Source: an uncultured Candidatus Binatia bacterium
GTDB taxonomy: Bacteria; Desulfobacterota; Binatia; UBA9968; JAJDTQ01
DNA: 64,000 nucleotides
Direction of reading: 5' to 3'
Assembly: GCA_965213675.1 (NCBI GenBank)
Contig: CBDCAF010000018.1
Coordinates: 1 to 64,000, forward strand
The position numbers and the translations under genes were made by a program. The first letter of the stretch is position 1; each line of letters begins with the position of its first letter. Under the pieces are notes generated by a model, which saw only the letters and a program-made list of their open reading frames with translations, made no database searches and was not told the DNA's origin. Below, piece after piece: positions 47,701-61,681 of the stretch.

Positions 47701-48073
47701 CGCTCAGGATATCGAAGACCTGCTGCCGCAACTCGAAGACCGCGCCGAGGGTGTGGCCCGGAGCGCTGGGGACAGGCTTCGCGCACGTGGCGAAAGGGAG
47801 GGACAGCAGCTTCGGGAGACCCTGGAACGTCAGCGCCGGCGAGTGGAAACGGAACTCGGCAAGCACGAGGGCCGCGGAACCCAGCTCACGCTGGAGTTCA
47901 GTGAAGCCGAGAAGCGCCAGCTTCAGGCCGACATCGCGTCGTGGCGCGTGCGTCTGGACCGGTTCGACAAGGACCTTAAGACCGAACCGGCCCGGATCCG
48001 CGAGTTCTACGAAGTGCGGGCACAACGAGTCGAGCCCATCGGCTTGGTGTACCTGTGGCCGGACACCGGTTGA
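44732..48073 (+). CDS. drmD: DISARM SNF2-like helicase
   Basis: ADDTGLGKT, LDEAHH, LSATPHNG, TDAAREGLN and PWNPGRIEQRNGRIDR motifs; ends VEPIGLVYLWPDTG; upstream of an MTase; start uncertain. Confidence 0.88.
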   Translation: MANSRNFSEYDKATTDLPAPLERTPLEDAARLLPERFPDVGELVEVRSRRWLVEAVESESGRVSLACADDDAQGQTLEVYWEFEIDRRILEVEAWNAIGAKGFDAPRHFSAFLHTLRWNCVTATDPNLFQSPFRAGIKIDAYQMEPLRKALRLPRVNLFIADDTGLGKTIEAGLIARELLLRKKVKTMVVAAPASVLEQWKAEMEERFGLLFVILDRAYLTQVRQERGFGVNPWRTHSRFLVSHNLLIDPTYADPMREWLGALLPGSLLILDEAHHAAPSSGGRYGIESKFTRAVRDVGGRFEHRLFLSATPHNGHSNSFSTLLELLDPYRFTRGVPVRGKKDLDEVMVRRIKEDIREVQGGFPRRHVEPVRIDGLPDDAPELVLSRLLDEYRGLREQRLAGARPRAQAMAGLLVVGLQQKLLSSIEAFAISLARHRRTIERLWAQDTEDGQNVPDTRVETVATEPFLKLFAKPPDADDERAEQTDEENAAEEEAQITAINETAELGTPTDEGAKAAWDKEQALLTRMHEVADGARGRPDAKTRRLIDWIYDNLCPDRPRWNERRVLIFTENVIGTKRYLREMLEQAIAGTDFAEERIETIDGQTAGARRKEIQRRFNADPAHDPLRILIATDAAREGLNFQAHCTDLFHFDLPWNPGRIEQRNGRIDRKLQPAPEVRCHYFVLPQRAEDRVLEVLVRKTATIRQQLGSLSKVIDDEVERRLREGIRHGDVERIARDIEAADLDRERRRVAAEELEAARERQDDLKGQIERCRGLLDQSRRWVQFEAQPFRNALSCSLEMLGAEPLKETRTDDGGVVWTLPPLAGKARADASWTATLDTLRAPRKTDQKLAEWRQQAPIRPVVFEDAGVLTDDTVHLHLEQRMAQRLLARFRSQGFVYHDLSRACLVQAADSVPRVILLGRLCLFGRHAERLHEELIPVAARWVEPSRRNGPLRAYAEEAEARTLERLETALQSARGPNETIHRRLRDIAAQDIEDLLPQLEDRAEGVARSAGDRLRARGEREGQQLRETLERQRRRVETELGKHEGRGTQLTLEFSEAEKRQLQADIASWRVRLDRFDKDLKTEPARIREFYEVRAQRVEPIGLVYLWPDTG

Positions 48074-48078
48074 GACCC

Positions 48079-51000
48079 ATGCCTGCGCCCGACCCACACA
48101 CCCGCGCCCATCTCGAATGGCTCGGCTTCATCCAGCCGAACGGCCTCGTGGTCTCCGCTCCGGCCCTGGTCAAGGCTGGGGCCATCCTCAACCGGCACGA
48201 TGTCGAAGGGCAGGAGTTGCTGGACGCTTGGTTGAACCAACGCGATGGATCGCCTGCGCGCCCTCGGGAACAGTGCCTCCAGGACTTCCGCGTATTCGCG
48301 AAGACCATCCTCGGCTGGGGTTTCTCGCCCAAGGGATACGCGGGTACGGAGGAGACCCCTATCCCGGCGGCACTTAAGGTTCCTCTCCCCGACTACGGAG
48401 AGACGCTGCGTCCGGACTTCGCGGTGTGCGAGCGCGACCCGCAGGCCGGGGAATTGCCGTGGCAGTTGCTCGTGCAGGTGCTGGAAGAGGGTGAAGGCTT
48501 CGACAGGCCGACCGCCGGCGGACTGAAAACCTCTCCGCAGGATCGAATGGAGCGCCTCCTCCGCAGCACCGGAGTTCCTGCTGGTGTGCTCTTCAACGGC
48601 GCTGCGCTACGTCTCGTCTCGGCCCCGCGCGGCGAAAGCTCCGGCTGGATGGACTTTCGTTTGGCCGACATGGCCCAGACCGCGGGGCGGCCTCTGTGCG
48701 CGGCGTTGCGCCTTCTTTTGTGTGAGCAACGCCTGTTGACAGGGCCGAAGGAACATCGCCTGGCGGCGCTGCTCGCCGACAGCCGCCGGTATCAGAACGA
48801 GGTCAGCGAGCGGCTTTCCGAGCAGGTCATGCACGCACTCTATGACCTCCTTCGAGGGTTCCAGGCGGCCCAGGACGAATCCCGCGGAGAGCTGCTGCGG
48901 GAACCGCTCTCCGCGGAAGGCGACCCCAACGACATCTATCGCGGCCTTCTCGCCGTCATCCTCCGCCTCGTCTTTCTGCTCTACGCCGAGGAGCGCCGCA
49001 TGCTTCCGGGCGGCGAGACCTTCATCCAGCACTATTCGGTTGGCGGCCTCTACCAGCGCCTGCGCGAGGAGGCGGCCTTGCACCCGGATACCATGGATCA
49101 GCGCTACGGCGCGTGGGCGCAGCTTCTCGTGCTGTTCCGCCTTATTCACGACGGGGCGGGTGGGCACAAGACCGGAGGCAGCGTCAGCCTTCCGGAACGC
49201 CGCGGCGTTTTGTTCAACCCGGATCGGTATCCGTTCCTCGAGGGCCGTCACAGCGGCGGCGGCCGGCAGATCACCGAGCGGGTCCAGCCGCCGCTGGTCT
49301 CCGACGGCGCCGTCTACCGGGTGCTGGAGAAGCTGGTAGTCCTCGACGGCGAGCGCATTTCCTACCGCACCCTGGACGTGGAACAGATCGGGTCCGTTTA
49401 CGAGGTCATCATGGGCTTCCGTCTGGAGACCGCCACCGGCCGGTCCATGTCCGTCAAGTCCGCCAAGAAGCTTGGGGCGCCGAGCACCGTCGATCTCGAC
49501 GAGTTGGCGAGACAGCCCGGCGAACGTCGTGGGAAATGGCTCCAGGACCGCGTGGACCGCACCCTCACCGACACCGTCAGGAAGGGACTGCGGGCAGCCG
49601 ATACGGTGGATGACCTTCACTTGGCGCTGGACCGGGTGCTGGACAAGGACGCCACGCCGGACCTCGTCACTCCCGGCTCCCTGGTGCTGCAACCCAGTGA
49701 TGAGCGCCGCCGCTCGGGCTCCAACTACACGCCGCGGGAACTCACCGAACCGATTGTCCGCCACACTCTGGAGCCCCTGCTCAATCGGCTTCGCGGCGAG
49801 GATGGACAGGCACCGTCTCCCGCCCGGATTCTCGACCTCAAGATTTGCGATCCGGCCATGGGTTCCGGCGCCTTTCTGGTGGAAACCTGTCGCCAGCTCG
49901 CGGATGCGCTCACCGAGGCATGGCACAAGCACGATGAGACGCCGGTAATCCCGCCTGACGAAGACGAGGGGATCCATGCCCGCCGTCTGGTCGCCCAGAA
50001 GTGCCTCTACGGCATCGACCGGAATCCCATGGCTGTGGACCTGGCCAAGACCTCGCTGTGGCTCAGCACGTTGGCGCGGGACCACCCGCTCACCTTCCTG
50101 GACCACGCGTTCCGCCATGGCGACGCCCTCGTCGGATTGACCCGGAAACAGGCCGAGGCGTTCCACTGGATCCCGGATAGACCTCCTGAAGAGGGTTTCG
50201 AGATCATGAGGGTGCGGGAACACATGACGGAGTTGGCCGCGCTGCGCCAGCGCATCAGGGACGCGGGCGAGGATGTCTCCGATCAAGAACTGCACGACAT
50301 CTGGCAAGATGCGCGCGACGAGCTTGGCGCCGTCCGGCTCTACGGCGATCTGGCGCTGGCGGCGTTCTTCGCTGAAACCAAACGGGGGCCAAGGGAAGGG
50401 AAGAGGCGCGAATTCGCCGCAGCCGCCTGGGGTGGTCAGGCCGAGCGCTACCTGGGATGGATCGGGGACCAGCGCGGCAGCGACCCGCCGCTCGCTCCTT
50501 TCCACTGGGAAATCGAGTTCCCCGAGGTGTTCGAGCGCGAGAATCCGGGGTTCGACGCGTTCGTCGGGAACCCGCCGTTCGCCGGGAAAAATAGCGTCGT
50601 CGCTGGTAACGTCGTGGGTTATCCCGACTGGCTCAAGACCGTCCACAGAGAGAGCCACGGCAACGCCGACCTTGTAGCGCACTTCTACCGGCGTGCGTTC
50701 AACCTCCTGCGTGAAGGGGGCGCGTTCGGTCTGATTGCCACCAACACCATCGCCCAAGGCGATACCCGTTCCACCGGACTGCGCTGGATTTGCGAGAACA
50801 ACGGCTCGATCTTCCGCGCCACCAAACGGGTCAAGTGGCCCGGCGACGCGGCCGTGGTGGTCAGCGTGCTGCACGTCGCCAAGGGCGAATTTGCAGGAAC
50901 CAAGGTGCTCGACGGCAGGGATGTGGAGAACATCACCGCGTTCCTCTTCCACAAGGGCGGCCACGCCGACCCGGCGCGCCTCGAAGCGAACGCCGGCAAG

Positions 51001-53229
51001 AGCTTCCAGGGAAGCATCGTCCTCGGAATGGGCTTCACCTTTGACGACACGGACAAGAAGGGCGTCGCCAACCCGCTGTCGGAGATGCAGCGGCTGATCG
51101 AAGCAGACCCGCGCAACGGCGAGCGCATCTTCCCGTACATCGGTGGCGAGGAGGTGAACACCAGCCCGACCCACGCCCATCACCGATACGTGATCAACTT
51201 TGAGGACTTTCCGTTGCGGAGGGAGGACCTGGGAAAGCAGTGGGCGGACGCGGGGGAAGACTTGCGCCGCACATGGCTGCGGCGCGGGGTGGTCCCGCTG
51301 GACTATCCGGAGCCGGTGGCAGCGGATTGGCCGGATTTGCTGGCGATTGTGGATGAGCGAGTGAGGCCGGAGCGAAGCAAGCTCACGAAGAATCCCATCG
51401 GTCGAAAGCGAGCGGAGTTCTGGTGGCGTTACGGCTCGACGGCAAACGAACTCTACGCCGCCAGCGCCAGTCAGCCTCGAGTTTTGGTGATTTCGAGATA
51501 CGGACAAGTTGCTGCATTCACGTTCTTGCCCGCCGGCGCTGTCTATAGCGATTCATGCATCATATTCCCGGTCGACACCTATGCCGCCCTGTGCGTCCTC
51601 CAGTCCCGCCCCCACGAGATCTGGGTGCGCTTCTTTGGCTCGTCGATGAAGGACGACCTCCGCTACACGCCATCCGACTGCTTCGAGACTTTCGCTTTTC
51701 CTGATGATTGGGCAACGGCCACGGCGCTGGAGGCCGCAGGCAAGGCGTATTTTGAGCACCGAGTGACGCTGATGCTCTGTAACGGTGAGGGTCTGACCAG
51801 AACCTTAAACCGCTTTCATGACCCCTACGATGGCAATCCGAATATCATCCGTCTCCGAGAACTCCACGCCGCCATGGACCGCGCCGTCCTCGACGCCTAC
51901 GGCTGGACCGACATCCCCACCGACTGTGATTTCCTCCTCGACTACGAAATCGACGAGGCTACTTGGGGCGTGAAGAAAAAGCCGTACCGCTATCGCTGGC
52001 CCGACAAAATTTGCGACGAAGTCCTTGCTCGCCTTCTCGCCCTCAATGTTGAGCGTTCCGAAGAGGAAGCCCGTGCACGGCTGGTGCAGAAGCCGGTCCG
52101 AAAGAAACGCCATCGCGTCCTGATGGTGGCAGAACAACCTCCTCTCTGGGATCGTCCAATGACTGACCAGACTCCACAGCGGTTCACGCCGTTGGTGAAG
52201 CGCTCTCGTCCCAAGCCTTCGACGATCTATCCGGTTCTCTGGAAATTTGCGTGTGAGCGCCAGCGGGTCTATCTACGGCGCGTCGCAGGCGACCCAAGCC
52301 CGTGGACTACGGACACTGTGCTGTCAGAATACAAGTTCACGAATGCCTTCAGAGCCGCTGACAGGGTGAGTCAGTACCTGATTCAGTTGATCTATTCTGA
52401 TGCTAAGGCCAGCGGCGCCAACGTGTTTCTGAGAGCCCTTTTATTCAAGGTCTTCAACAAGATCGAGACGTGGGACAGGGTCGTTAACGGACTCGGCATG
52501 CCTGTCGCTCACGAGTTCGACTACGCGGCGTGCGACGATTTGCTTGTCAATCTTCGTCGGCAGGGGGCGCCGATTTACTCCGCCGCTTACATCATGCCAT
52601 CGGGAGGACGAGTCGGGATGCCGAAGCACCGGATGCATCTCGAACTGATTCGCAGAATGCTTGATGAACGCCTTCCGGAGAAGCTGCAGGAGTCGAAGTC
52701 GCTGGCTGAAGCCTACGAGATGGTTCTTTTGTATCCCACGTTGGGACCCTTTCTCGCTTTCCAGTACGTTATCGACCTAAATTATTCGACCCTGATGAAC
52801 CACTCGGAACAGAGATTCGTGGTTGCCGGCCCCGGCGCCTTGGATGGACTGTCCAAGTGCTTCGAGTCGCTTGGGGAGTATGATCCGGCCGACGCCATCC
52901 TATGGTTGTCCGACATCCAAGCGGACGAGTTCGCGCGGTATGGACTCGAATTCGGGGGTCTATGGGGACGCCCGCTTCAGCCGATCGATGTCCAGAATCT
53001 GTTCTGTGAGGTCTCGAAGTACACTCGGGTGACACATCCAGAGATAAGAGGCCTGACCAAGCGTAAACGCATCAAGCAAAGATTTGCGATGACAGGGCCG
53101 CTCGCCAAGCCCTTCTTCCCGCCCAAATGGGGCTTGAATCAACGAATTGACGAGTGGCTCCCGCGCCGAACGGGTGCAACTCTCGAACAACGCGAGCTTT
53201 TCTTCCCAACCCCAGCCAGGCCTACGTGA
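48079..53229 (+). CDS. drmMI: DISARM N6-adenine DNA methyltransferase fused in frame to an aGPT-Pplase1-like (base hypermodification) domain
   Basis: RSGSNYTP, DPAMGSGAFL, GNPPF and YIGGEE motifs; no stop before FACERQ...PWT.D..L..YKFTNAFRAADRVSQYLI...FLAFQY..DLNYS...IDVQNLFCEVSKY; internal ATG at 52159. Confidence 0.82.
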   Translation: MPAPDPHTRAHLEWLGFIQPNGLVVSAPALVKAGAILNRHDVEGQELLDAWLNQRDGSPARPREQCLQDFRVFAKTILGWGFSPKGYAGTEETPIPAALKVPLPDYGETLRPDFAVCERDPQAGELPWQLLVQVLEEGEGFDRPTAGGLKTSPQDRMERLLRSTGVPAGVLFNGAALRLVSAPRGESSGWMDFRLADMAQTAGRPLCAALRLLLCEQRLLTGPKEHRLAALLADSRRYQNEVSERLSEQVMHALYDLLRGFQAAQDESRGELLREPLSAEGDPNDIYRGLLAVILRLVFLLYAEERRMLPGGETFIQHYSVGGLYQRLREEAALHPDTMDQRYGAWAQLLVLFRLIHDGAGGHKTGGSVSLPERRGVLFNPDRYPFLEGRHSGGGRQITERVQPPLVSDGAVYRVLEKLVVLDGERISYRTLDVEQIGSVYEVIMGFRLETATGRSMSVKSAKKLGAPSTVDLDELARQPGERRGKWLQDRVDRTLTDTVRKGLRAADTVDDLHLALDRVLDKDATPDLVTPGSLVLQPSDERRRSGSNYTPRELTEPIVRHTLEPLLNRLRGEDGQAPSPARILDLKICDPAMGSGAFLVETCRQLADALTEAWHKHDETPVIPPDEDEGIHARRLVAQKCLYGIDRNPMAVDLAKTSLWLSTLARDHPLTFLDHAFRHGDALVGLTRKQAEAFHWIPDRPPEEGFEIMRVREHMTELAALRQRIRDAGEDVSDQELHDIWQDARDELGAVRLYGDLALAAFFAETKRGPREGKRREFAAAAWGGQAERYLGWIGDQRGSDPPLAPFHWEIEFPEVFERENPGFDAFVGNPPFAGKNSVVAGNVVGYPDWLKTVHRESHGNADLVAHFYRRAFNLLREGGAFGLIATNTIAQGDTRSTGLRWICENNGSIFRATKRVKWPGDAAVVVSVLHVAKGEFAGTKVLDGRDVENITAFLFHKGGHADPARLEANAGKSFQGSIVLGMGFTFDDTDKKGVANPLSEMQRLIEADPRNGERIFPYIGGEEVNTSPTHAHHRYVINFEDFPLRREDLGKQWADAGEDLRRTWLRRGVVPLDYPEPVAADWPDLLAIVDERVRPERSKLTKNPIGRKRAEFWWRYGSTANELYAASASQPRVLVISRYGQVAAFTFLPAGAVYSDSCIIFPVDTYAALCVLQSRPHEIWVRFFGSSMKDDLRYTPSDCFETFAFPDDWATATALEAAGKAYFEHRVTLMLCNGEGLTRTLNRFHDPYDGNPNIIRLRELHAAMDRAVLDAYGWTDIPTDCDFLLDYEIDEATWGVKKKPYRYRWPDKICDEVLARLLALNVERSEEEARARLVQKPVRKKRHRVLMVAEQPPLWDRPMTDQTPQRFTPLVKRSRPKPSTIYPVLWKFACERQRVYLRRVAGDPSPWTTDTVLSEYKFTNAFRAADRVSQYLIQLIYSDAKASGANVFLRALLFKVFNKIETWDRVVNGLGMPVAHEFDYAACDDLLVNLRRQGAPIYSAAYIMPSGGRVGMPKHRMHLELIRRMLDERLPEKLQESKSLAEAYEMVLLYPTLGPFLAFQYVIDLNYSTLMNHSEQRFVVAGPGALDGLSKCFESLGEYDPADAILWLSDIQADEFARYGLEFGGLWGRPLQPIDVQNLFCEVSKYTRVTHPEIRGLTKRKRIKQRFAMTGPLAKPFFPPKWGLNQRIDEWLPRRTGATLEQRELFFPTPARPT

Positions 53230-54301
53230 TTTCGCGGTAAAGAAGTTGCCGTTGATTCATGTCGAGCGTTACGTGTCCTCCCTCGTGTTCCCGGAGAGAC
53301 CTGAACACGCGATATCCTTTGAGAATGGCGGTTTCCCACCGCCATAGGGGAAGTTTGGCGACCTCGAAGCCTTGTATGAACTCCTTTACGGCCTTGAGCA
53401 GGTCATAGTCGACCTGGTCGATATTGTCGTAGTAGTTCATTTTCTTTGCCCGGCTGAATACAATGGCGGATACGGCCTCTTCGATAATTCTCGCCCGCGC
53501 ACCGTCCTCGTTCTCGTCCACCAGTGGATCGCTCTTCCGCTTGCACTTCAGTAGGTGTCTTATGACAGGTGACCATCCGAGGTACACGGCGTAAGCGAAA
53601 TGGAAAACATCGTGAAACCGGTAGAAGTCAGGCTGTCCGATATTGTCCGTCAGGCGATCCCCGAAGTTCAGTCCGTTACACCGGAGTATGGCCGTCACCT
53701 TGCTGTCCCGCTGGACTTGGCGAAAGTCGATATCGAGTTTACGTGGGAGCTGTTCCTCTTCCGGGAAGCCCTCATCGAAGAAAGGTGGGACGACATACCT
53801 CTCGGGCCATCGGCTCTGCGTCTTTTCCTGGTTCGTTCGCGCGGCCTCGTAGAGGTCGACGCCGGCGCCTTCCGCAACGTGAAATAGGGCGTCCCAGGTT
53901 GGCCCAAGCCTTCCGGAATCCATTCGGTCACGGTTTTGCACTGCACTGAGTAATTCGCCCGCCGCAACCCCGAGGGCCACTCCATCCCCCAAGGGTCCTG
54001 GGCTTCGCCCCGATAGGGCCTGCGCTCGCTTGTTCGCACGGTTCAGTGCCGACGGATCAAGAATGGCGGAGAGGCGCGCCAAGTACCAAAGACAATCTCC
54101 GATTTCTTCGACGAGCCGCTTACGGTATGCGGGATAGGCGTCGGTTTCACGTTGTTCCTTTTTCAATTCGGCGAGAACACTCCCCGCTTCACCGAAAAGA
54201 CCTGCCGCAAGGATGAGGGCGTGGTTCGGTTTGTCGACGAGTTGATCCGTTCGCTTTGCAGACTTGGCGTATTCAATGAGCCAAGACATCGGCTTTCTCA
54301 T
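53222..54301 (-). CDS. MazG-like nucleotide pyrophosphohydrolase with MazG_C domain
   Basis: GLFGEAG..EL..EEIGDCLWYL acidic motif; YRFHDVFHFAY..LGWSPVIR..KRKS...EDGARA..IEE. Confidence 0.8.
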   Translation of the reverse strand: MRKPMSWLIEYAKSAKRTDQLVDKPNHALILAAGLFGEAGSVLAELKKEQRETDAYPAYRKRLVEEIGDCLWYLARLSAILDPSALNRANKRAQALSGRSPGPLGDGVALGVAAGELLSAVQNRDRMDSGRLGPTWDALFHVAEGAGVDLYEAARTNQEKTQSRWPERYVVPPFFDEGFPEEEQLPRKLDIDFRQVQRDSKVTAILRCNGLNFGDRLTDNIGQPDFYRFHDVFHFAYAVYLGWSPVIRHLLKCKRKSDPLVDENEDGARARIIEEAVSAIVFSRAKKMNYYDNIDQVDYDLLKAVKEFIQGFEVAKLPLWRWETAILKGYRVFRSLREHEGGHVTLDMNQRQLLYREIT

Positions 54302-55067
54302 GTGCTTCCTTCAAGGAACGGAGATCGTCGAGCAGTTTCTGTAGCCGTCTTTCCGACCCCTCAAGGGTGGCATAAGACGAGTGGACCACCAGGGTGCCCA
54401 TGTCCTGCCCGGTCTCTTTGGCGACACAATCCTGGAGGCGGGCCAAACCAAGCAGGTTGCCTGGTACCTTGTATCGGTAGTCATGGCTCCGGTAGAATGC
54501 TGTCAGGTGGACCGCACCAACGAAGAGCTTGAACGAAAGGTGGGAGAGACAAGGATCGCCCCGTCGGCGTTTACCGTCTTTCACCGTGTTGTAGAGGGGC
54601 ATGTCGTATTCCCCTTCGGCGACATTAATGTCGTAACGGGATTTCATGGTTCCCTTGGTCGAAAGCTCCTTCTTCATATTGTCTATCATCTCCTTCAAGG
54701 GGTTCATGTCCGTGCCATCGGCTGTCTTTCGTCGAACCAGCCGATAGGCGTAGGTGTCCCAAAGGATCTTTGGATGCCGCTTGATCGCCGGAAAGGTCTT
54801 ATCGGGGTAGTCGTCGTAGACGCCCTTCAGTCCCCGCCTGCGATATTCTGACAAGGGAAAGATCGTTTCGGCCACCGAGTGAATCGGTAGTTGGTTTTCG
54901 CCCATAAAGAAGTCATCGAGTTTTTGCTCTGCGGCCTTGGGATAGCCCCTCTTTCCCGGTTCTCCGATCTCCAGCACAAGGTTCAGCATGGGACCGTTGG
55001 ACAACAGGAACTCGGCGGCGTCAACCCAGGCATCCATCCAGGCAGCGGTCTGGATCAATTTTGCCAT
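54273..55067 (-). CDS. Divergent thymidylate-synthase-superfamily enzyme
   Basis: PCLSHLSF (catalytic Cys), LTAFYRSHD, PGNLLGLARL and LVVHS motifs. Confidence 0.7.
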   Translation of the reverse strand: MAKLIQTAAWMDAWVDAAEFLLSNGPMLNLVLEIGEPGKRGYPKAAEQKLDDFFMGENQLPIHSVAETIFPLSEYRRRGLKGVYDDYPDKTFPAIKRHPKILWDTYAYRLVRRKTADGTDMNPLKEMIDNMKKELSTKGTMKSRYDINVAEGEYDMPLYNTVKDGKRRRGDPCLSHLSFKLFVGAVHLTAFYRSHDYRYKVPGNLLGLARLQDCVAKETGQDMGTLVVHSSYATLEGSERRLQKLLDDLRSLKEAHEKADVLAH

Positions 55068-55696
55068 CACGTCACCTCCTCCGTGAGGGCCAGTAGGTCG
55101 CGTAGATGACGGGCGAGGAAGGCGTCGTCGAGCCATGCATGGCCGTTGTCACCCCATTCGGCACCCCAGCTATTCCTGACCAGGAAGCACCGCGATGTAT
55201 CGGCGGTCCCCAAACCGACCGCTACGACTGCGTGAAGACCTCGGATCGGGCCGTCGTGCGAGATTAACCAAAGAGGTGTAGGCGACAAAAAGTCGTCTGG
55301 TATGGAAATGCCGAGAACAGGCGTTTGCCCAGCGTTTAGCAGGGTTTCGACCTCATCTGCGGTAGCATCCTTCTGAACGCTCTTGCGTGGGTACAGTCGC
55401 ACGCCTGCCGGTGGCATCCAGCCGAGAGGCAAACCGTCGGGATAGTAGGGGCAGTCTGCTTCCGCGGGCTGCCCAGGGTCTTGCAGGGCACGAGATGTCT
55501 CCAGGAATGCTGCGCCATCCGTCGGATTGTGGACCGACGCAAAGTAGTGGAGATACTCCGGCGAGAGCGCCATCTTGGAGCCGCGCACGCGTTCGTGTGC
55601 GCTCGTGCAGGCAAATGATAGACATGTGGGCCGGGCGCCCTGGTCCCGAATCGGGCCGAGGCTTTGCCGGTGGTCGACGAGAACGGTGATGTTCAT
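55067..55696 (-). CDS. Papain-like C1 cysteine peptidase (no signal peptide or prodomain)
   Basis: IRDQGARPTCLSFA, LHAVVAVG and VRNSWGAEWGDNGHAW motifs. Confidence 0.85.
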   Translation of the reverse strand: MNITVLVDHRQSLGPIRDQGARPTCLSFACTSAHERVRGSKMALSPEYLHYFASVHNPTDGAAFLETSRALQDPGQPAEADCPYYPDGLPLGWMPPAGVRLYPRKSVQKDATADEVETLLNAGQTPVLGISIPDDFLSPTPLWLISHDGPIRGLHAVVAVGLGTADTSRCFLVRNSWGAEWGDNGHAWLDDAFLARHLRDLLALTEEVT

Positions 55697-56676
55697 GCTG
55701 CATTTGCCAGTGCGTCGAGTTTGGCTTTTCTCGGGAAGCCGCCGGATTCCTTTCCATGAGCATCGATTTTGATCGCGATATGGTCGAGTGTCGCGCCGCT
55801 CCATGGGCGGGCGTGTTCAAAGGCGAGTCGATGTGTGCCAGGAGTATTGAAACGGACATACACGACACGGGCTGAAGGCCGTCCATAGACTCTGTCCGAG
55901 TCTGCTGTGTGCTCTGCGATGACCTCGGAGCTGGCTCCGGTGTCGATGAGCCTCCAGATGTAGCCGGCGGAAACGTTGTCCTCCAGATGGACTGCGAAGA
56001 GATCGTCGGGTCCGGCTTCGAGAAACGTGTCGGTGTCACCACAGGTCAAAGCCCAGACGTCGGCCCAGGAGTTCGTGATCAGTTCTGCGGGTGCCAACGC
56101 CCGCTTCAGTTCCTTGACCGGCGTCGCTTCGAGTTGTTTGGCTTCCGCGCGCGTAAGGACCTTGGACGTTACCAAACCCCAGCATGCGGCTTGGTAGCTG
56201 ATGCCCAAGCGAAGGGAAAGTTGGTAGATGTTGCGCGGTTGATGCAGCTCTTGCCTTTTCCAGCCATGGCGTGTGGCGGATTCTACCATGAGCTGTTTTG
56301 ATGCCAGCAGCTCCGAGGCAAAGGTGTCAGCGGCCACCTCCTCAATCGCACGTGACCCTGAAGCGTGACGTCCCGCGAACCCAACGGTTTTATCCAGGCT
56401 TGACTCATGCCCCAGCACCCAGTGTCCGAGCTCGTGGGCCAGTGTAAACCGCTGAACGGCCAGTCCCATGCGACTCGTAACGATGATGCCTCGGGCACCC
56501 TTGCCAGCGGGAACAACGGCGCCCCAAAGATGATCCAGCGGCCGAAAGACGAGGGGGATGTCCCGCGTGGTGATCGCGCTGACAATGTCGAAACTGGTGC
56601 GGTCACTCTTGGCAGTTGAGGCGAGAATCTTGGCTGCTTCTCTGACGGCTCGCAAAGTCTCGTTACGTCTGTTCAT
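55693..56676 (-). CDS. ImmA/IrrE metallopeptidase with C-terminal chagasin (I42)-like domain
   Basis: RFTLAHELGH and E..AD.FASELL; C-terminal LEDNVSAGYIW...PGTHRLAFEHARPW. Confidence 0.78.
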   Translation of the reverse strand: MNRRNETLRAVREAAKILASTAKSDRTSFDIVSAITTRDIPLVFRPLDHLWGAVVPAGKGARGIIVTSRMGLAVQRFTLAHELGHWVLGHESSLDKTVGFAGRHASGSRAIEEVAADTFASELLASKQLMVESATRHGWKRQELHQPRNIYQLSLRLGISYQAACWGLVTSKVLTRAEAKQLEATPVKELKRALAPAELITNSWADVWALTCGDTDTFLEAGPDDLFAVHLEDNVSAGYIWRLIDTGASSEVIAEHTADSDRVYGRPSARVVYVRFNTPGTHRLAFEHARPWSGATLDHIAIKIDAHGKESGGFPRKAKLDALANAA

Positions 56677-57025
56677 CCGGTTTCCTCGACCGCAGGAATT
56701 GGGCGAAACGAAGAACCTCCTCCCGGTCGGTCACCGACAGTTCAGCGGTCGCCCGTGCTACCAGTCGTACCGACTCCGGCTCCGGGCTCTCCAGATCGGG
56801 TCCGGTGAGGCTCTCCATGTTGGTCTGATAGAGCGTGGCAAGGCGCTGAAGTTCCAATGCATCGACACGTCGCGCCCGATTCTCCATGAGTGAAATGGCG
56901 GATCTGGGAAGGCCGAGATGTGCGGCAACCTCTTCCTGGGTGAACCCGCAGTATTCCCGCGCCTCCTTTAGCCGCGTGCTCAGGGTGCCACGCTTGGCTG
57001 GCTGGCCGTGATTATCGTCGTTCAT
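56663..57025 (-). CDS. XRE-family HTH transcriptional regulator
   Basis: RLKEAREYCGFTQEEVA..LG..RSAISLMEN; GGAGGT RBS. Confidence 0.88.
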   Translation of the reverse strand: MNDDNHGQPAKRGTLSTRLKEAREYCGFTQEEVAAHLGLPRSAISLMENRARRVDALELQRLATLYQTNMESLTGPDLESPEPESVRLVARATAELSVTDREEVLRFAQFLRSRKPDEQT

Positions 57026-57059
57026 TTACCACCTCCAATCGGATGGGTTGGCGTCAAGC

Positions 57060-57455
57060 TCAGGAGATCTTTCTCATCATTTCGGGTACAAGATGATCGA
57101 TCATGTCGTCGATGCTCTGGTAACCTCCAGGACGAATCAGCCGAACGTCAATGGGGCGACCTAGGTATCGCTGAAAAATCGGAGAGCTGCGGGCCACAGC
57201 CTTTGAGTCCAACTCAGGCATGGAATCCCACAGGTCGGAGTTGCTCCTGTCACTGACCATTCCGTTACGACTCGCTTCCACTTGTAAATCCCAGTCTCCC
57301 ATCTCCTGACTCGCCCATTCCCTGAGTTCTTTTCTCAAGAGGGCCTCCTTGTTCGGCCCACGGCCCCTCACGGTCCTCAGCGTGGAGGTATCCCAGAACG
57401 AAAGGGGAATCTGGGATGAAGATTTAGGGGCTTGGGTAGGGATTTTGTGTTCCAT
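57060..57455 (-). CDS. Hypothetical protein, possible divergent acyl-carrier-like protein
   Basis: ELDSKAV...YLGRPID...YQSIDDMIDHL matches ACP helix II-IV spacing; directly downstream of a PPTase; start uncertain. Confidence 0.5.
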   Translation of the reverse strand: MEHKIPTQAPKSSSQIPLSFWDTSTLRTVRGRGPNKEALLRKELREWASQEMGDWDLQVEASRNGMVSDRSNSDLWDSMPELDSKAVARSSPIFQRYLGRPIDVRLIRPGGYQSIDDMIDHLVPEMMRKIS

Positions 57456-57489
57456 AACGGAACAAGATTAGCACCGTAATGTTCGAAAG

Positions 57490-58161
57490 TCAAACATTGC
57501 GTTGGGGCAATTCCGGCTGTTGTGACAACAAGGCAACTGAGCCCACCCAGGGACGGACGGCGGTGGTGCAGCAAACCTCTACAGCGATTCGGTCGAAATG
57601 AGCAACGCCGTTCATCATCCCTTGTGGCGCAACTTCCTTCCACGAGAGTCGTACGTTGTCGTAGCCGAATCGGACACCAAGAACAGGGTTCAAAGCCTTG
57701 AAAACGGCTTCCTTCACCGACAGTAGGATCACCGAGCCTGCAACACCCCAGTCCAGAGGCAACTCGTCGGACGCGATCAGTCCTTTGATTGACAGGAGTT
57801 CCCGACCGCGGTCCAGAGTCTCGATGTCGATGCCGACGGACCTCACGTGACTGATCCGAGATAGCCCAGCCACAACTTTGGTGCCTTTATGGCTCACGCT
57901 CCCCGTGTAACCCGGTGGCCAGTCTCGGGCGCCGGAGGCGAGGTGCCCTGGCTCATTGGCAGACAGCCCAGCACTCTCCAGCAGATTGGTCAGACAGGTC
58001 GCCGTGGCCTTCCGTCTCGCGCGTTCCACGACGGGGACACGTTCAGCGGACAGGACGTCCTGAGGGCCTGGTAGCCAATGCGCAAAAGAACCGCCCCTGA
58101 TGCTCACTTCAGGTGCCAAGCGTTTGAGTTCGTCAACGAGGGGGTCACGTTGCAGATACAT
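57490..58161 (-). CDS. 4'-phosphopantetheinyl transferase (EntD/Sfp-type)
   Basis: WPPGYTGSVSH, VGIDIE and SVKEAVFKA motifs. Confidence 0.8.
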   Translation of the reverse strand: MYLQRDPLVDELKRLAPEVSIRGGSFAHWLPGPQDVLSAERVPVVERARRKATATCLTNLLESAGLSANEPGHLASGARDWPPGYTGSVSHKGTKVVAGLSRISHVRSVGIDIETLDRGRELLSIKGLIASDELPLDWGVAGSVILLSVKEAVFKALNPVLGVRFGYDNVRLSWKEVAPQGMMNGVAHFDRIAVEVCCTTAVRPWVGSVALLSQQPELPQRNV

Positions 58162-58343
58162 GGTTTGATTTTTGCCGTTTACGGGTCTGCGTGGGGTCGA
58201 TATCGGTTGGGTGCCGTGACGACGGCTGGCTTCTCGTTGTCTCCCGTGCCCCAGTTCTTCCGCTTGGGGCATATCGTCTCATCGGGTAACCTATTCTATA
58301 GGCCGCCGGTTCCGTGGGCGAGCCCCCATTGGACGCGATCCTG

Positions 58344-58742
58344 ATGGAAGCCAAACTCAAGCACCTTGAATTTATCCAGGGCGTAGTGAATCGCCTAGCG
58401 TCTGACTCCTTCCGAATGAAGGGCTGGGCGGTGGCCTTGGTTGCTGCGTTCTTTGTCCTGTTGGCAAGGGAAGGACGGATCGAATTTGCCCCGATAGCCG
58501 TGGTTCCCGTGCTTGTCTTCTGGGGACTCGACGGCTACTTCCTGTGGCAGGAACGTCTCTTCCGTGCCCTGTACGATCACGTTCGGCGTGTGAGTGAAGT
58601 CGACATTGACTTCTCCATGGATGTCGGCCCGTTTCGAATGGGCTGGCGACGAACTTGGTTGGGCGCAACATTCTCGAAAACGCTGATCTTCTTCTACGGC
58701 GCGTTGACCATCGCTGTCGGCTTGGTGACGTGCATCTACTGA
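58344..58742 (+). CDS. Small membrane protein upstream of a TIR gene
   Basis: KHLEFIQGVVNRLASDSFRMKGW; ~3 hydrophobic helices; LDGYFLWQERLFRALYD. Confidence 0.7.
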   Translation: MEAKLKHLEFIQGVVNRLASDSFRMKGWAVALVAAFFVLLAREGRIEFAPIAVVPVLVFWGLDGYFLWQERLFRALYDHVRRVSEVDIDFSMDVGPFRMGWRRTWLGATFSKTLIFFYGALTIAVGLVTCIY

Positions 58743-58761
58743 CCGCGAGGAGACACATCCA

Positions 58762-59259
58762 ATGACACGCAGGGTGTTCTACAGCTTTCACTACAACGCC
58801 GACAACTGGCGAGCTGCCATGGTGCGCAATATCGGCAGTATCGAAGGGAGCAGCCCCGCATCGGACAACGACTGGGAGGCCGTGAAGAGGGGCGGGGAAG
58901 CAGCGATCAGGAAATGGATCGCCAACCAAATGCAATACCGCTCCTGTACAGTCGTACTGGTCGGGTCGAATACTGCGAACCGCAAGTGGATCAACCACGA
59001 AATCGTCAAGTCGTGGGATGACGGTATGGGTGTGATAGGGATCCACATTCACGGGCTGAAGGATGCCGACGGCAATACGTCAGCCCGAGGAGCCAATCCG
59101 TTTGACTTCATCACGCTTGGAGATTCTGCGAAGCGGCTATCATCCATAGTGAGGTGTTGTGTTCCCGGCGGCAGCAATAGTCAGGAGAAATATGCCTGGA
59201 TCTCGAAGCACCTCGCGAATGCAGTAGAAGAAGCCATAAAAATACGAAACAATAATTGA
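58762..59259 (+). CDS. TIR-domain protein (ThsB/DUF1863-like)
   Basis: RRVFYSFHY, SCTVVLVG and RKWINHEI (catalytic Glu) motifs. Confidence 0.85.
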   Translation: MTRRVFYSFHYNADNWRAAMVRNIGSIEGSSPASDNDWEAVKRGGEAAIRKWIANQMQYRSCTVVLVGSNTANRKWINHEIVKSWDDGMGVIGIHIHGLKDADGNTSARGANPFDFITLGDSAKRLSSIVRCCVPGGSNSQEKYAWISKHLANAVEEAIKIRNNN

Positions 59260-59276
59260 AGACCGCTATCGTCTGT

Positions 59277-60512
59277 ATGAAAGCATCCATCGAGCAACCC
59301 AACCCTGGAGCCGATCCCGGAACGATCACGCGCGTAGCCCTGCGTAACTACAAAAGCATTGCCGCCTGCGATGTCGAGTTGACGCCGCTCACTGTCCTCG
59401 TGGGTCCCAACGGTTCCGGCAAGAGTAATTTCCTTGACGCCCTGTGCTTTGCGGCGCAGGCATTGCGTTTTTCTCTGCACCATGCTGTACACGAGCGCGG
59501 TGGGATCAACGAGGTGCGCCGGCTTTCCCACGGCCATCCCAACCGCTTTGGCATCCGTCTGGATTTCCGTTTGTCCGACGCAACAGGGTGGTACGCGTTC
59601 AAGATCGGAGTGCGACGGAACGGCGGCTGTGTCGTACACCGCGAGGAATGTGCTATCCAACACGCCGACCCTGGAGAAAGGCAGTATTTCCGAATAGGCG
59701 ACGGTCGTCTACTGTCTACCTCCATCCCACACCCGCCGCCGACAGGTGGAAGTGACCGACTTTACCTACAGTCGGCCTCAGGATTTCGAGCGTTCCGGCC
59801 GATTTACGATATGTTGGCGGGAATGGGGTTCTACAATCTCAAGCCGGACCGGATTCGAGACTTCCAGTCGCCGGACCGCGGGGATCTCCTCAAACGGAAT
59901 GGAAGCAACATCGCCAGCGTTCTCGCCAACCTTGAGTCACGTTCCCCAGAGGTTGCAACACGGGTCGGCCAATACCTGTCCAAGGTCGTCCCGGGAACGG
60001 TCGGCGTGGCGTCGAAGACGGTCGGACCCAAGCTGACCCTGGAGTTTTGTCAGCAGGTGCGTGGCGATCCGCACCCTCGGCGGTTTCTTGCCAACAACGC
60101 TTCAGAAGGGACGTTGCGGGTCGTCGGGGTACTCGTAGCGCTTTGTCAGAGTATCGGAGTGGAATCGGGGAACGTGAAACTGGTCGGCATCGAAGAACCG
60201 GAAGGCACCCTTCACCCTGCGGCTGCCGGAGTGCTGTCCGACATACTGCGCGAGGCGAGCGAGCGTGTGCAGGTTGTCGTCACCAGCCAGAGTGCGGACT
60301 TGTTGGATCGGAAAACGATTCCATTGGAATCCATCCTGGCGGTCGTCTCCGAGGACAATGAGACGAAAATTGCCCGGCTTGATGCGGCAGGCCACACGGC
60401 ACTCCGGGAAGATATGTTCACGGCGGGGGAGATGCTTCGGATGAATCAGCTTACGCCGAATCCAAAGCAGGTGGCGCCCGTTCACCTGGACCTCTTCCGT
60501 AAGGAGGAGTAG
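59277..60512 (+). CDS. ABC/SMC-like predicted ATPase (AAA_21 type), partly degenerate
   Basis: LRNYKSI, GPNGSGKS, SEGTLR, IEEPE and VTSQS motifs. Confidence 0.8.
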   Translation: MKASIEQPNPGADPGTITRVALRNYKSIAACDVELTPLTVLVGPNGSGKSNFLDALCFAAQALRFSLHHAVHERGGINEVRRLSHGHPNRFGIRLDFRLSDATGWYAFKIGVRRNGGCVVHREECAIQHADPGERQYFRIGDGRLLSTSIPHPPPTGGSDRLYLQSASGFRAFRPIYDMLAGMGFYNLKPDRIRDFQSPDRGDLLKRNGSNIASVLANLESRSPEVATRVGQYLSKVVPGTVGVASKTVGPKLTLEFCQQVRGDPHPRRFLANNASEGTLRVVGVLVALCQSIGVESGNVKLVGIEEPEGTLHPAAAGVLSDILREASERVQVVVTSQSADLLDRKTIPLESILAVVSEDNETKIARLDAAGHTALREDMFTAGEMLRMNQLTPNPKQVAPVHLDLFRKEE

Positions 60513-60537
60513 GGGAAGGTGTCAAGGAGGCGTGTTC

Positions 60538-60888
60538 ATGCCGCGCAACACATCGGTTTCTCTCGGGTATCACTTCATCGGTTTCATCGACGAGCGTGTG
60601 CAGTCCGGTCGTTACAACTCGGCAAGCGATGTGGTGCGCGCCGGGCTGCGGCTGTTGGAAGAGCACGAAGCCAAGGTTGAGGCTCTGAGGGAAGCCCTCA
60701 TCGAAGGCGAGCAATCCGGTCCGGCGACACCGTTTGACTTCGACGCGTTCATTACCCGCAAGAAGACTACTCAGGACGGTCAAGAGGGCCGTCCTGAGAC
60801 CCAGTCCGAGTTTGCCAGCCAAGACCGCTACCCGGCCGGCCATGAAACGGGACGCCTGAACCGAGACGACATTGACGAAGGCGGTTAG
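60538..60888 (+). CDS. ParD-family RHH antitoxin with C-terminal extension
   Basis: NTSVSLG..F..FI...VQSGRYNSASDVVRAGLRLLE...IEGEQSG..FDFDAF. Confidence 0.8.
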   Translation: MPRNTSVSLGYHFIGFIDERVQSGRYNSASDVVRAGLRLLEEHEAKVEALREALIEGEQSGPATPFDFDAFITRKKTTQDGQEGRPETQSEFASQDRYPAGHETGRLNRDDIDEGG

Positions 60889-60897
60889 TTTCCTACA

Positions 60898-61137
60898 ATG
60901 AGCACCATGATTGACCCGAAGGCATGCGCCTTCCAGGAAGATCGCGCTGCGGCTGAAGTCGAAGCTGCCCTGGCGGCGGCCAAGGAAGACGCCAAGAGAG
61001 TCAGGGCAGAGTTTGTCGATAGTTTGCCGCCAGACTCTCTCGCATACGATGCCGAATGGACTACCGGGTACGGCAGCGAGGGTCGCTTGATCTTCACGAT
61101 AACCTCCGTATGCGTGACTACCCCAGAGAAGCGGTGA
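60898..61137 (+). CDS. Hypothetical protein
   Basis: 79-aa ORF in operon orientation; no motif recognised. Confidence 0.35.
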   Translation: MSTMIDPKACAFQEDRAAAEVEAALAAAKEDAKRVRAEFVDSLPPDSLAYDAEWTTGYGSEGRLIFTITSVCVTTPEKR

Positions 61138-61300
61138 ACCAAGTGACTGCCGACCTGCGAAGGCGACTCGTCGGCACAAGAGTCGATGCATGTGGTGTAT
61201 GGGTGGTCACCATCATCCTGCGGCCCAGGCCGTCGGGTTGATCCCATGCCTAGAGATCCACGCCAATTGACAACCGCGGACCATCCCGTACGTTCAAGGC

Positions 61301-61681
61301 ATGACCTACCGAGAGCCATTGCCCCCTGGATGTCCGCCGAACCCCGCGGACGAAATCAACCTGCCACGTGAGCTGTTCCGGTTGGTGCGGAGCCTTCCAC
61401 CCGCCGCAGAGGACTTCAGATCGTGGCGCGCGGAACAACCGCAACGCGGTTTACCGAAGGAGTTGACGGAGTGCCAAGCCCGGGGACTGTCGGTCTATGC
61501 AGAGCGCTACGACCTGGAGAGCATCTTGAAGCTCCCGAAGTTCCGCGGACGTTGGATCTGTCGCCTGCGGCTGGGAGCGGGCGCGGGCCGGATTCAACAG
61601 ACGGGGAGACCTTCGCACCATACTTGGTGGCCGCTGGCTGATTACGATTTCCTCGGCCAGTGTCACGTGGAAACGGCATGA
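61301..61681 (+). CDS. Hypothetical protein, possible ADP-ribosyltransferase-like fold
   Basis: GCPP, LFRLV, EDF, CQARGLSVY and HHTWW segments; ATGA overlap with the next gene. Confidence 0.55.
   Translation: MTYREPLPPGCPPNPADEINLPRELFRLVRSLPPAAEDFRSWRAEQPQRGLPKELTECQARGLSVYAERYDLESILKLPKFRGRWICRLRLGAGAGRIQQTGRPSHHTWWPLADYDFLGQCHVETA

Follow-up and report, generated by a model that had tools for sequence, protein, structure and literature searches.

A chagasin-family inhibitor domain fused to an ImmA/IrrE-type metallopeptidase and coupled to a papain-family peptidase gene in a cassette embedded in a DISARM operon

In the IrrE/DdrO pair of Deinococcus and in ImmA/ImmR of ICEBs1 and prophages, the repressor is cleaved by a neighbouring metalloprotease of the M78 family. 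Papain-family (C1) peptidases are commonly kept latent by part of their own chain. Typical C1A zymogens have a signal peptide, disulphides and an inhibitory propeptide, and this propeptide is a polypeptide that fills the active-site cleft until activation. Protein inhibitors of the chagasin (I42) family, found in Trypanosoma, Leishmania, Entamoeba, Plasmodium and Pseudomonas, are free-standing proteins of about 110–130 amino acids (aa) or tandem repeats. They bind the protease through three loops, canonically L2 with NPTTG(Y/F)xW, L4 with GxGG and L6 with RPW, and are thought mostly to act on exogenous or compartmentalised proteases. Here we describe a pair of genes in which an M78 peptidase, an I42 domain and a papain-family peptidase occur together. 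The pair lies on the minus strand of a 64,000-nucleotide (nt) stretch, called the window below, from an uncultured Candidatus Binatia bacterium (assembly GCA_965213675.1, contig CBDCAF010000018.1, positions 1–64,000). The first gene encodes a 327-aa ImmA/IrrE (M78) metallopeptidase with a C-terminal I42 domain (ImmA-I42, 55693–56676), and the second a 209-aa papain-family (C1A-like) cysteine peptidase (C1, 55067–55696). Both belong to a densely packed cassette located between 53.2 and 58.2 kb. The components are known singly, as proteolytic switches made of a helix-turn-helix (HTH) protein with ImmA, IrrE or CapP, and as chagasin–papain inhibition. We found no earlier description of the combination in open-access and bioRxiv full text.

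The regulatory half of the pair most resembles CapH/CapP, an HTH repressor with an IrrE-like zinc peptidase that regulates CBASS, DISARM and other defence operons. Passages of one study describe CapP as a peptidase followed by an HTH-like linker and a GAF domain, with the zinc ligands His96, His100 and Glu129 and with a Cys-switch loop in a third of the members; the same passages report CapH/CapP-like pairs together with DISARM (10.1101/2022.04.27.489752). Single-stranded DNA (ssDNA) in the inter-domain groove of CapP activates the cleavage of CapH, according to sections of that study and of a second one (10.1101/2022.04.27.489752, 10.64898/2026.05.16.725639). In the window, an XRE-family HTH protein of 120 aa (56663–57025, minus strand), the presumed substrate and repressor, precedes ImmA-I42 and overlaps its start by 14 nt. 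The likeness lies in an XRE-type HTH protein with a C-terminal oligomerisation region that adjoins an HExxH M78 peptidase. The HTH protein matches Pfam HTH_31 (E value 1.7e-10), HTH_3 (1.4e-9) and PADLOC capH (1.1e-11, residues 15–113). Peptidase_M78 (PF06114, IrrE N-terminal-like) covers residues 61–165 of ImmA-I42 with an E value of 1e-9 and 38.7 bits against a cut-off of 22, and the capP match (7e-16) is confined to residues 14–164. The zinc-binding and catalytic motif HELGH, read from the translation, occupies residues 81–85 (56422–56436). H81, H85 and E113 are the equivalents of the CapP ligands and, together with E82, are invariant in an alignment of 25 of 25 ImmA sequences.

The differences from CapP concern the rest of the protein and its setting. 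The GAF domain is replaced by I42, the cysteine-switch loop is absent (the segment from H85 to E113 contains no Cys), the HTH–ImmA pair stands in the middle of an operon rather than divergently, and a cysteine protease is coupled to it. Relative to IrrE/DdrO and ImmA/ImmR, the window protein likewise has no GAF domain, shows no sign of an input of the RecA or RapI type, and carries the extra inhibitor domain and the papain partner. As judged by these profile matches, ImmA-I42 is a CapP/IrrE-type metalloprotease in which a chagasin-family domain has taken the place of the GAF sensor normally found at the C-terminus. A sequence-only reading of this DNA had called the enzyme IrrE/CapP-type; the capH and capP matches uphold the assignment for the peptidase part, and the missing GAF domain and cysteine switch restrict it to that part. 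The window protein thus lacks two CapP-defining features, and we infer a CapP-type switch action for it by analogy.

The I42 domain itself is well defined. Pfam Inhibitor_I42 (PF09394) matches residues 224–302 (55771–56007) with an E value of 3.1e-10 and 40.6 bits against a cut-off of 27.2, and the C-terminal 135 aa by themselves give 5.6e-11 and 43 bits; the complete domain spans approximately residues 200–327 (55696–56079). The sequence-only reading had proposed a chagasin-like domain from the motifs N-x-S-A-G-Y-x-W and RPW. This proved correct: besides the Pfam score, the L2 (BC) loop NVSAGYIW at residues 234–241 (55954–55977) is the counterpart of chagasin NPTTGFAW, and the L6 (FG) loop RPW is read from the translation at residues 290–292 (55801–55809). 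A profile of 21 orthologous C-terminal domains, compared with all PDB sequences, gave nine matches at E ≤ 1, and all nine were I42 inhibitors (amoebiasin-2 at 4e-4, chagasin in several entries at about 3e-3, the ICP proteins of Leishmania and Pseudomonas, and PbICP-C). The loops fall in register with those of the PDB entries: NPTTGFAW with SAGYxW, GAGG with YGxxS, and RPW with RPW. G238, Y239 and W241 in L2, G265 in L4, and P291 and W292 in L6 are invariant among relatives at 29–36% identity, the archaeal and single-chain forms included, with R290 at least 90% conserved. Among 72 full-length representatives of the fusion, HExxH is present in 68, G[YFW]xW in 68 and [RQKH]PW in 63. On this profile and alignment evidence, the C-terminal domain of the window ImmA is a genuine I42-family domain.

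The neighbouring 209-aa protein matches Pfam Peptidase_C1 with an E value of 5.5e-10. A profile built from 22 C1 sequences aligned with mature papain-family chains of the PDB over positions 3–190; 168 sequences were found at E ≤ 0.01, among them Der f 1 (1.1e-18) and cathepsin K (5e-17). The catalytic codons, placed by translation, are Q19 (55640–55642), C25 (55622–55624), H155 (55232–55234) and N175 (55172–55174). These four residues and W177 are identical in all 22 C1 orthologues, and with S176 they are retained in 11 of 11 sequences that include the plasmid and archaeal copies. The protein begins seven residues ahead of the mature N-terminal VDxR, has no hydrophobic leader, and lacks a Cys at position 22, the disulphide partner. 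Since it starts at the mature N-terminus, C1 has neither a prodomain nor a signal peptide, and therefore no propeptide to hold the peptidase inactive. The sequence-only reading had likewise taken the next gene, joined by an ATGA overlap, for a papain with intact Q/C/H/N residues and no prodomain, and its account of this gene stands in full. In contrast to propeptide latency, the presumed blocker here is the I42 domain of another protein, and unlike the known inhibitors this domain is part of a cytoplasmic metalloprotease. If this is so, it would be the first case found of a cysteine-protease inhibitor domain inside a bacterial immune regulator, with a prodomain-less cytoplasmic papain restrained in trans.

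To follow the pair through other organisms, we used one genome per species and 72,556 plasmids. The genome scan returned 50 loci, of which L001–L027 are true relatives of the cassette. The remaining 23 (L028–L050) were set aside: ten have any tblastn match at E ≤ 1e-5, in the metallopeptidase part only, and no other cassette gene gives a match. Genes were counted over the 27 loci by tblastn with the window proteins, some of the loci stopping at contig borders. The HTH gene was found in 27 of 27 loci, adjacent to ImmA; 25 of 27 have the I42 region, and C1 is near-full in 22 and gives any match in 24. The stop of ImmA and the start of C1 overlap by 4 nt in 19 of the 19 loci in which both open reading frames (ORFs) were called. 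All 22 loci with a near-full C1 also have the I42 region, so that an intact C1 without I42 occurs in none of them. The opposite case, I42 without an intact C1, occurs in three loci (L012, L013 and L023), and in two (L024 and L025) both are missing; these counts are small. In comparisons of sequence, the observation made in the window, a fusion protein with a papain neighbour, is confirmed well beyond chance. The comparison strongly suggests that I42 and C1 form an inhibitor–protease pair, and we consider it likely that the I42 domain binds and inhibits the neighbouring C1.

The same counts bear on a toxin–antitoxin or abortive-infection explanation. According to it, which comes nearest to the sequence-only reading, the papain would be the terminal toxin, the HTH–ImmA-I42 unit a repressor and antitoxin lost on infection, and the nucleotide enzymes a separate module transferred together with them; the freed papain would destroy proteins of the host or the phage. 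Type II antitoxins likewise have a DNA-binding domain, a linker and a toxin-binding domain in this order, and HTH, M78 and I42 also occur in a single chain. The genes are tightly coupled in translation, and the decay is asymmetric, I42 remaining without C1 in three loci and never the reverse. Four of the 72 fusion representatives lack HExxH, and all four keep both I42 loops. The combination of HTH and M78 is also shared with type II toxin–antitoxin modules of the HTH-COG2856 (spr1629) type, and NCBIfam links ImmA-I42 weakly (1e-4) to the spr1629 repressor/antitoxin family. However, this score is far under the family cut-off of 335 bits, a papain would take the part of the "toxin", and few loci underlie the decay pattern. 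Moreover, in 27 genomes and 15 plasmids C1 never forms a two- or three-gene module apart from the genes for the acyl carrier protein (ACP)-like protein and the thymidylate-synthase-like (TS-like) enzyme described below, and cassettes of Streptomyces do without C1, which is thus not the indispensable output. We regard the toxin–antitoxin explanation as rather unlikely. Two of the single-chain proteins are P0307 and P0371 (468 and 485 aa); P0371 has HVLGH in place of HExxH and keeps both I42 loops.

The Streptomyces cassettes are found on two plasmids (L059, 4365–7828, and L060, 4284–7698). They encode MazG/MazG_C, ACP, HTH, ImmA, the TS-like protein and HMUDK_hel, and no C1. Because the two plasmids are closely related, the loss counts as one event. 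The 298-aa ImmA of Streptomyces follows the family profile only as far as the strand that precedes L2. It lacks both GYxW and RPW, and Pfam finds no I42 in it; a beta-rich C-terminal domain is retained. The sequence-only reading had pictured a two-protease switch, in which one sensor both derepresses the operon and holds or releases a cysteine-protease effector. This picture is supported in part: the I42 domain is real, the papain is intact, the two are coupled and co-occur from bacteria to an archaeal plasmid, and the loops are gone in the variant without C1. The simple two-gene form of it has to be given up, as the pair is the middle of a cassette of 5–8 genes and a natural variant runs without C1. 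The pair consists of two small soluble proteins, and the C1-less Streptomyces variant is a natural control for it.

Two further explanations meet at the Streptomyces protein. The I42-derived module may be an exapted Ig-like scaffold that is no longer inhibitory, its adjacency to C1 being historical. The canonical NPTT and GxGG are not kept, and the Streptomyces proteins have a C-terminal domain without the loops. Against this, no part of the domain is better conserved at about 30% identity than the three loop motifs, and they are lost only where C1 is lost, which makes a mere scaffold highly improbable. Alternatively, the I42/C1 complex could replace GAF as the input of the switch: a phage factor that binds C1, inhibits it or is cleaved by it would turn ImmA on, and C1 would serve as bait or guard. 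I42 sits exactly where the GAF sensor of CapP and IrrE would be, the Cys switch is absent, the beta-rich domain is retained even without C1, and the core effectors look nucleotide-directed. At the same time, there is no evidence of allostery and no phage-encoded partner is known, and we hold a sensor of this kind to be unlikely.

The explanation that we prefer is that the two genes constitute a protease-latency module within a larger, mobile, defence-associated cassette, with the papain as an accessory gated output; our confidence in it is evenly divided for and against. The I42 domain would clamp its cognate papain 1:1 by the L2, L4 and L6 loops and so stand in for the propeptide as the latency device, the cell holding an ImmA-I42/C1 complex. 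Once triggered, the metalloprotease would cleave the HTH repressor, as CapP, IrrE and ImmA do. Cleavage would raise the expression of the whole operon, that is, of the phosphopantetheinyl transferase (PPTase), the ACP-like carrier, the TS-like enzyme and MazG/MazG_C, together with an enzyme of uracil- or hydroxymethyluracil (U/hmU)-containing DNA. The fusion of inhibitor and metalloprotease, in some lineages with HTH as well, would make the activity of the papain depend on what state the regulator is in or what becomes of it, and the papain would be freed on loss, cleavage or displacement of ImmA-I42. The nucleotide-directed enzymes would then be the core effectors, and the papain an accessory gated output or amplifier. 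We take the papain to be accessory because a natural variant of the cassette lacks both C1 and the I42 loops.

Several observations weigh against the latency module and its place in defence. The Streptomyces variant demonstrates that the cassette can do without the papain. The putative inhibitory loops are reduced: compared with chagasin, NPTT has become x-x-S-A and L2 retains just S-A-G-Y-x-W, and L4 has shrunk from GxGG to YG, with RPW of L6 present. Strict 1:1 co-translation leaves no obvious route for releasing the papain. Since ImmA-I42 has neither GAF nor the Cys switch, an ssDNA trigger cannot simply be assumed. The HTH gene stands mid-operon, 34 nt past the ACP-like gene, without space for a promoter of its own. 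No operator or promoter was found for the cassette: a scan of 53000–58500 gave one promoter-like site against 1.8 expected and five terminator-like sites against 5.8 expected, which is uninformative because the counts are near chance expectation, and comparison with L001 by eye revealed no conserved operator upstream of the PPTase gene. No model of PADLOC v2 matches C1, the TS-like protein, MazG, the PPTase or the ACP-like protein, and it is from location alone that we infer an anti-phage function of the cassette.

The rest of the cassette is encoded on the same strand in the order PPTase, ACP-like protein, CapH-like HTH protein, ImmA-I42, C1, TS-like enzyme and MazG+MazG_C, and the gene for the HMUDK_hel protein is convergent. 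The Sfp-type 4'-phosphopantetheinyl transferase-like gene occupies 57490–58161, with the start taken from alignment and the ORF open to 58272. Its Pfam matches to ACPS and 4PPT_N are below the cut-off (E values 4e-4 and 7e-4) and the NCBIfam matches to PptT/Npt are weak; the motifs GSVSHKG, GIDIE and SVKEAxFKA and the shared start MxLxxDPLVDEL are conserved in 15 aligned orthologues. Downstream of C1, a divergent enzyme of the thymidylate-synthase fold lies at 54273–55067, its start overlapping the C1 stop (TGATG). Pfam Thymidylat_synt matches it with an E value of 5e-5 and 23.0 bits, just under the cut-off of 24.3, so by score its membership in the family is marginal. NCBIfam thy_syn_methano gives a partial match at 4.8e-10 and the PHROG thymidylate synthase family a match at 8.5e-6. 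No variation occurs at C173 (in CLSH), R193, H195 or N204 among 20 TS-like sequences; by ThyA roles, we take C173 to be the catalytic Cys, R193 the Arg that binds the dUMP phosphate, and N204 the Asn that specifies uracil. The next gene, at 53222–54301, encodes a MazG NTP pyrophosphohydrolase joined to a MazG_C domain (Pfam MazG_C 1.8e-78 and MazG 5e-5; PHROG MazG-like 1.6e-41). On the plus strand, the HMUDK_hel protein (helical domain of 5-hydroxymethyldeoxyuridine (5-hmdU) DNA kinase; Pfam 3.8e-94) lies at 52159–53229, convergent on MazG and here fused in frame to the C-terminus of DrmMI.

The small ACP-like protein u131 (57060–57455) has no match in Pfam, PADLOC or NCBIfam, and none of its 558 relatives has a Pfam domain. 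D83, S84, G111 and Y112 are invariant in its family, D-S marking the presumed phosphopantetheine attachment site and the GGY motif following downstream. The Streptomyces plasmids have a true PP-binding ACP in the same position (PF00550, E value about 1e-7, over the cut-off), and in an hhalign comparison the attachment Ser of that ACP pairs with S84, at an E value of 5.5e-4 and a probability of 30%. Weaker signals are a PP-binding match of one plasmid homologue (0.14) and, for a broader alignment of the family compared with the PDB, 2lki at 0.0074 and the ACP 2n98 at 0.11; the narrower family profile gave no significant ACP match in the PDB. The top TPR rows in the PDB search are repeat artefacts, in which no single stretch passes. 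A low-confidence Atlas model of the homologue P0432 comes nearest to ACP clusters (TM 0.57/0.78), which is a lead only. In the window and in Haloarcula, an Sfp-like PPTase adjoins the carrier-like gene; in Bradyrhizobium and in the variant of a Mycobacterium plasmid, its neighbour is AcpS. By these features, u131 is probably a carrier protein. We also note that a carrier-protein-like gene with the invariant D-S and a PPTase or AcpS stand inside a defence-island cassette beside a TS-like enzyme (window 57060–58161; L051, L056 and L059–L061).

Such a gene set raises the question of whether the papain-fold protein is itself a pathway enzyme. It could act as a thioesterase, transacylase or processing peptidase on the holo-ACP-like carrier and, with the TS-like protein and enzymes of the MazG_C or dTMP-kinase type, make a modified thymidine-type nucleotide or DNA base, I42 just preventing off-target proteolysis. 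The ACP-like, C1 and TS-like genes together with the regulators are the invariant coding core, a PPTase or AcpS has been recruited repeatedly, and the accessory genes all encode enzymes of U/T nucleotides or U/hmU-DNA (uracil-DNA glycosylase, HMUDK_hel, dTMP kinase, dCTP deaminase and a MazG_C+thymidylate-kinase fusion). On the other hand, C1 is an ordinary C1A-type peptidase over its full length, a dedicated protease inhibitor of the high-affinity type is unusual for a biosynthetic enzyme, and the C1-less variant keeps ACP and the TS-like gene. A pathway role for C1 is very unlikely in our estimate.

The nucleotide genes resemble those of phage thymidine hypermodification, the subject of PMC8989533, and of DefensePredictor systems: a TS fold, the 5-hmdU-DNA-kinase helical domain, MazG, MazG-C and dTMP kinase. 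In the DefensePredictor passages compared (PMC13092281), TS and 5-hmdU kinase occur in validated E. coli systems and MazG/MazG-C in predicted ones only; those passages contain no ImmA, papain, chagasin or carrier protein, and the sole peptidase there is M15. Searches of open-access and bioRxiv full text returned nothing relevant on chagasin or I42 with ImmA, anti-phage or phage, and no description of the cassette. The whole cassette is a candidate nucleotide-directed defence system without a PADLOC v2 model. A bolder proposal is that ImmA-I42 and the papain are a new kind of immune sensor-switch that replaces the ssDNA-sensing GAF domain of CapP. A phage factor engaging the papain or the inhibitor domain would turn the metalloprotease on and so launch an ACP-dependent, TS-like pathway; the pathway would make or destroy a uracil/thymine-type nucleotide, read by uracil-DNA glycosylase or a 5-hmdU-DNA-binding protein, and would poison the replication of phage DNA. 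We consider this quite doubtful. If true, it would be a previously unrecognised defence system common to bacteria and archaea and recurrently embedded in DISARM.

The surroundings of the window cassette are those of a defence locus. PADLOC identifies the DISARM genes drmD (44732–48073), drmMI (48055–53229, plus strand, methyltransferase, E value 0) and drmA (from 61660 to the end of the window). Between drmMI and drmA, inside the DISARM operon (44732–64000), the cassette is accompanied by PDC-M50A (58314–58742), a ThsB-like TIR protein (58762–59259) and HEC-01A (59256–60512). The G+C content of the embedded stretch is 0.57, and outside it 0.65. The cassette proteins have no Drm match in PADLOC, hence they are not core DISARM components (DrmA/B/C/D/MI). 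Among the 27 loci, drmA was found within 7 kb on either side of the cassette in 12 and drmMI in 8. Genes embedded in DISARM, BREX and restriction–modification loci are enriched for defence, and 96.7% of them are embedded in the same orientation, according to portions of Payne et al. (10.1101/2024.01.29.577857); the window cassette differs in being on the strand opposite to the DISARM genes. The main text of that work has no mention of thymidylate, MazG, papain, ImmA or peptidase (10.1101/2024.01.29.577857). In the window, DrmMI runs without a stop into HMUDK_hel, and an internal Met at about 52159 lines up with the beginning of the gene where other loci have it free-standing; the join is either a real gene fusion or a stop lost or frameshifted in the assembly. 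An AAA ATPase of the HEC-01A type, divergent from the PPTase end of the cassette, was seen in the window and in four of the 27 loci (L020–L022 and L025). Rfam gave no match within 50000–64000, and there are no tRNA genes in the whole window.

The hosts of the 27 loci are Binatia, Thermodesulfobacteriota, Gammaproteobacteria, Vicinamibacterales, Longimicrobiales, Planctomycetota, Thermoanaerobaculia, Terriglobia, Spirochaetota and Ca. Multivorans. Besides the counts given above, the u131 protein is present in 27 of 27 loci, the Sfp-like PPTase in 23, and near-full TS-like and MazG+MazG_C genes in 17 each. HMUDK_hel was found in 15, stand-alone and convergent on MazG in 13 and elsewhere in the locus in 2. 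A tblastn search of the plasmids produced 21 ImmA-I42 records at 30–36% identity, and 15 of 15 plasmids among the matches listed also have an adjacent C1 and TS-like gene. The annotated contexts are from Haloarcula marina (an archaeon), Rhizobium, Burkholderia glumae, Sphingobium, Sinorhizobium and Bradyrhizobium. Their core of five genes is invariant and its genes overlap: the small protein, HTH, ImmA with I42, C1 and, annotated as "hypothetical" with a product of about 260 aa, the TS-like gene. The variable accessory genes all deal with uracil/thymine nucleotides or DNA, namely a convergent uracil-DNA glycosylase with MazG/MazG_C, HMUDK_hel with dTMP kinase in Haloarcula, and dCTP deaminase with Shedu nearby in Bradyrhizobium. 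C1 matches on plasmids of Bacillus, Clostridium and Sinorhizobium medicae (at most 31% identity) were rejected as other C1 proteins; in the two contexts inspected, from Bacillus thuringiensis and Clostridium acetobutylicum, C1 is longer and has no annotated ImmA or I42 neighbour. The phage collection yielded one weak partial match, in the M78 part only, and so no sign of a phage-borne cassette.

Variants of the cassette were also seen. On a Mycobacterium sp. plasmid (L061, 5364–12591) it is rearranged: the TS-like gene leads, followed by AcpS, HTH and an ImmA of 430 aa whose NRTTGHRW loop looks canonical; after these come an IS630 transposase, a truncated C1 of 127 aa, and a MazG+MazG_C+thymidylate-kinase fusion. 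In five Vicinamibacterales loci (L005, L011, L012, L013 and L018; about 8.1–11.4 kb), a conserved ORF of about 160 aa, TIR-type by eye, lies downstream of C1 or of the TS-like gene, and its insertion coincides with truncated or displaced TS-like and MazG genes. A Spirochaetota metagenome-assembled genome (L027, 6236–7946) has three in-frame stops in the ACP-like gene and an ImmA match spread over two frames, which are likely pseudogenes or assembly errors.

The fusion family extends well beyond these loci. A search with the fusion protein gave 723 matches. Among the 120 listed (58–100% identity), 117 are annotated with both domains, and the sole annotation of family members among the matches listed is "ImmA/IrrE family metallo-endopeptidase". 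The I42-domain profile, compared with 1.84 billion cluster representatives at 50% identity, found 926 at E ≤ 1e-3 and 144 at E ≤ 1e-10. The best 150 representatives comprise 100 with an ImmA domain, 32 of less than 200 aa, which are fragments or free-standing inhibitors, and 18 longer ones without ImmA. The fusion family is thus large, with at least 100 clusters at 50% identity, and it is present in many bacterial phyla and on an archaeal plasmid, in defence loci, under a generic annotation. Four of the 18 longer proteins were scanned with Pfam (P0277, P0308, P0321 and P0356); they have three to six tandem I42 domains and no ImmA, and are presumably multi-headed cysteine-protease inhibitors.

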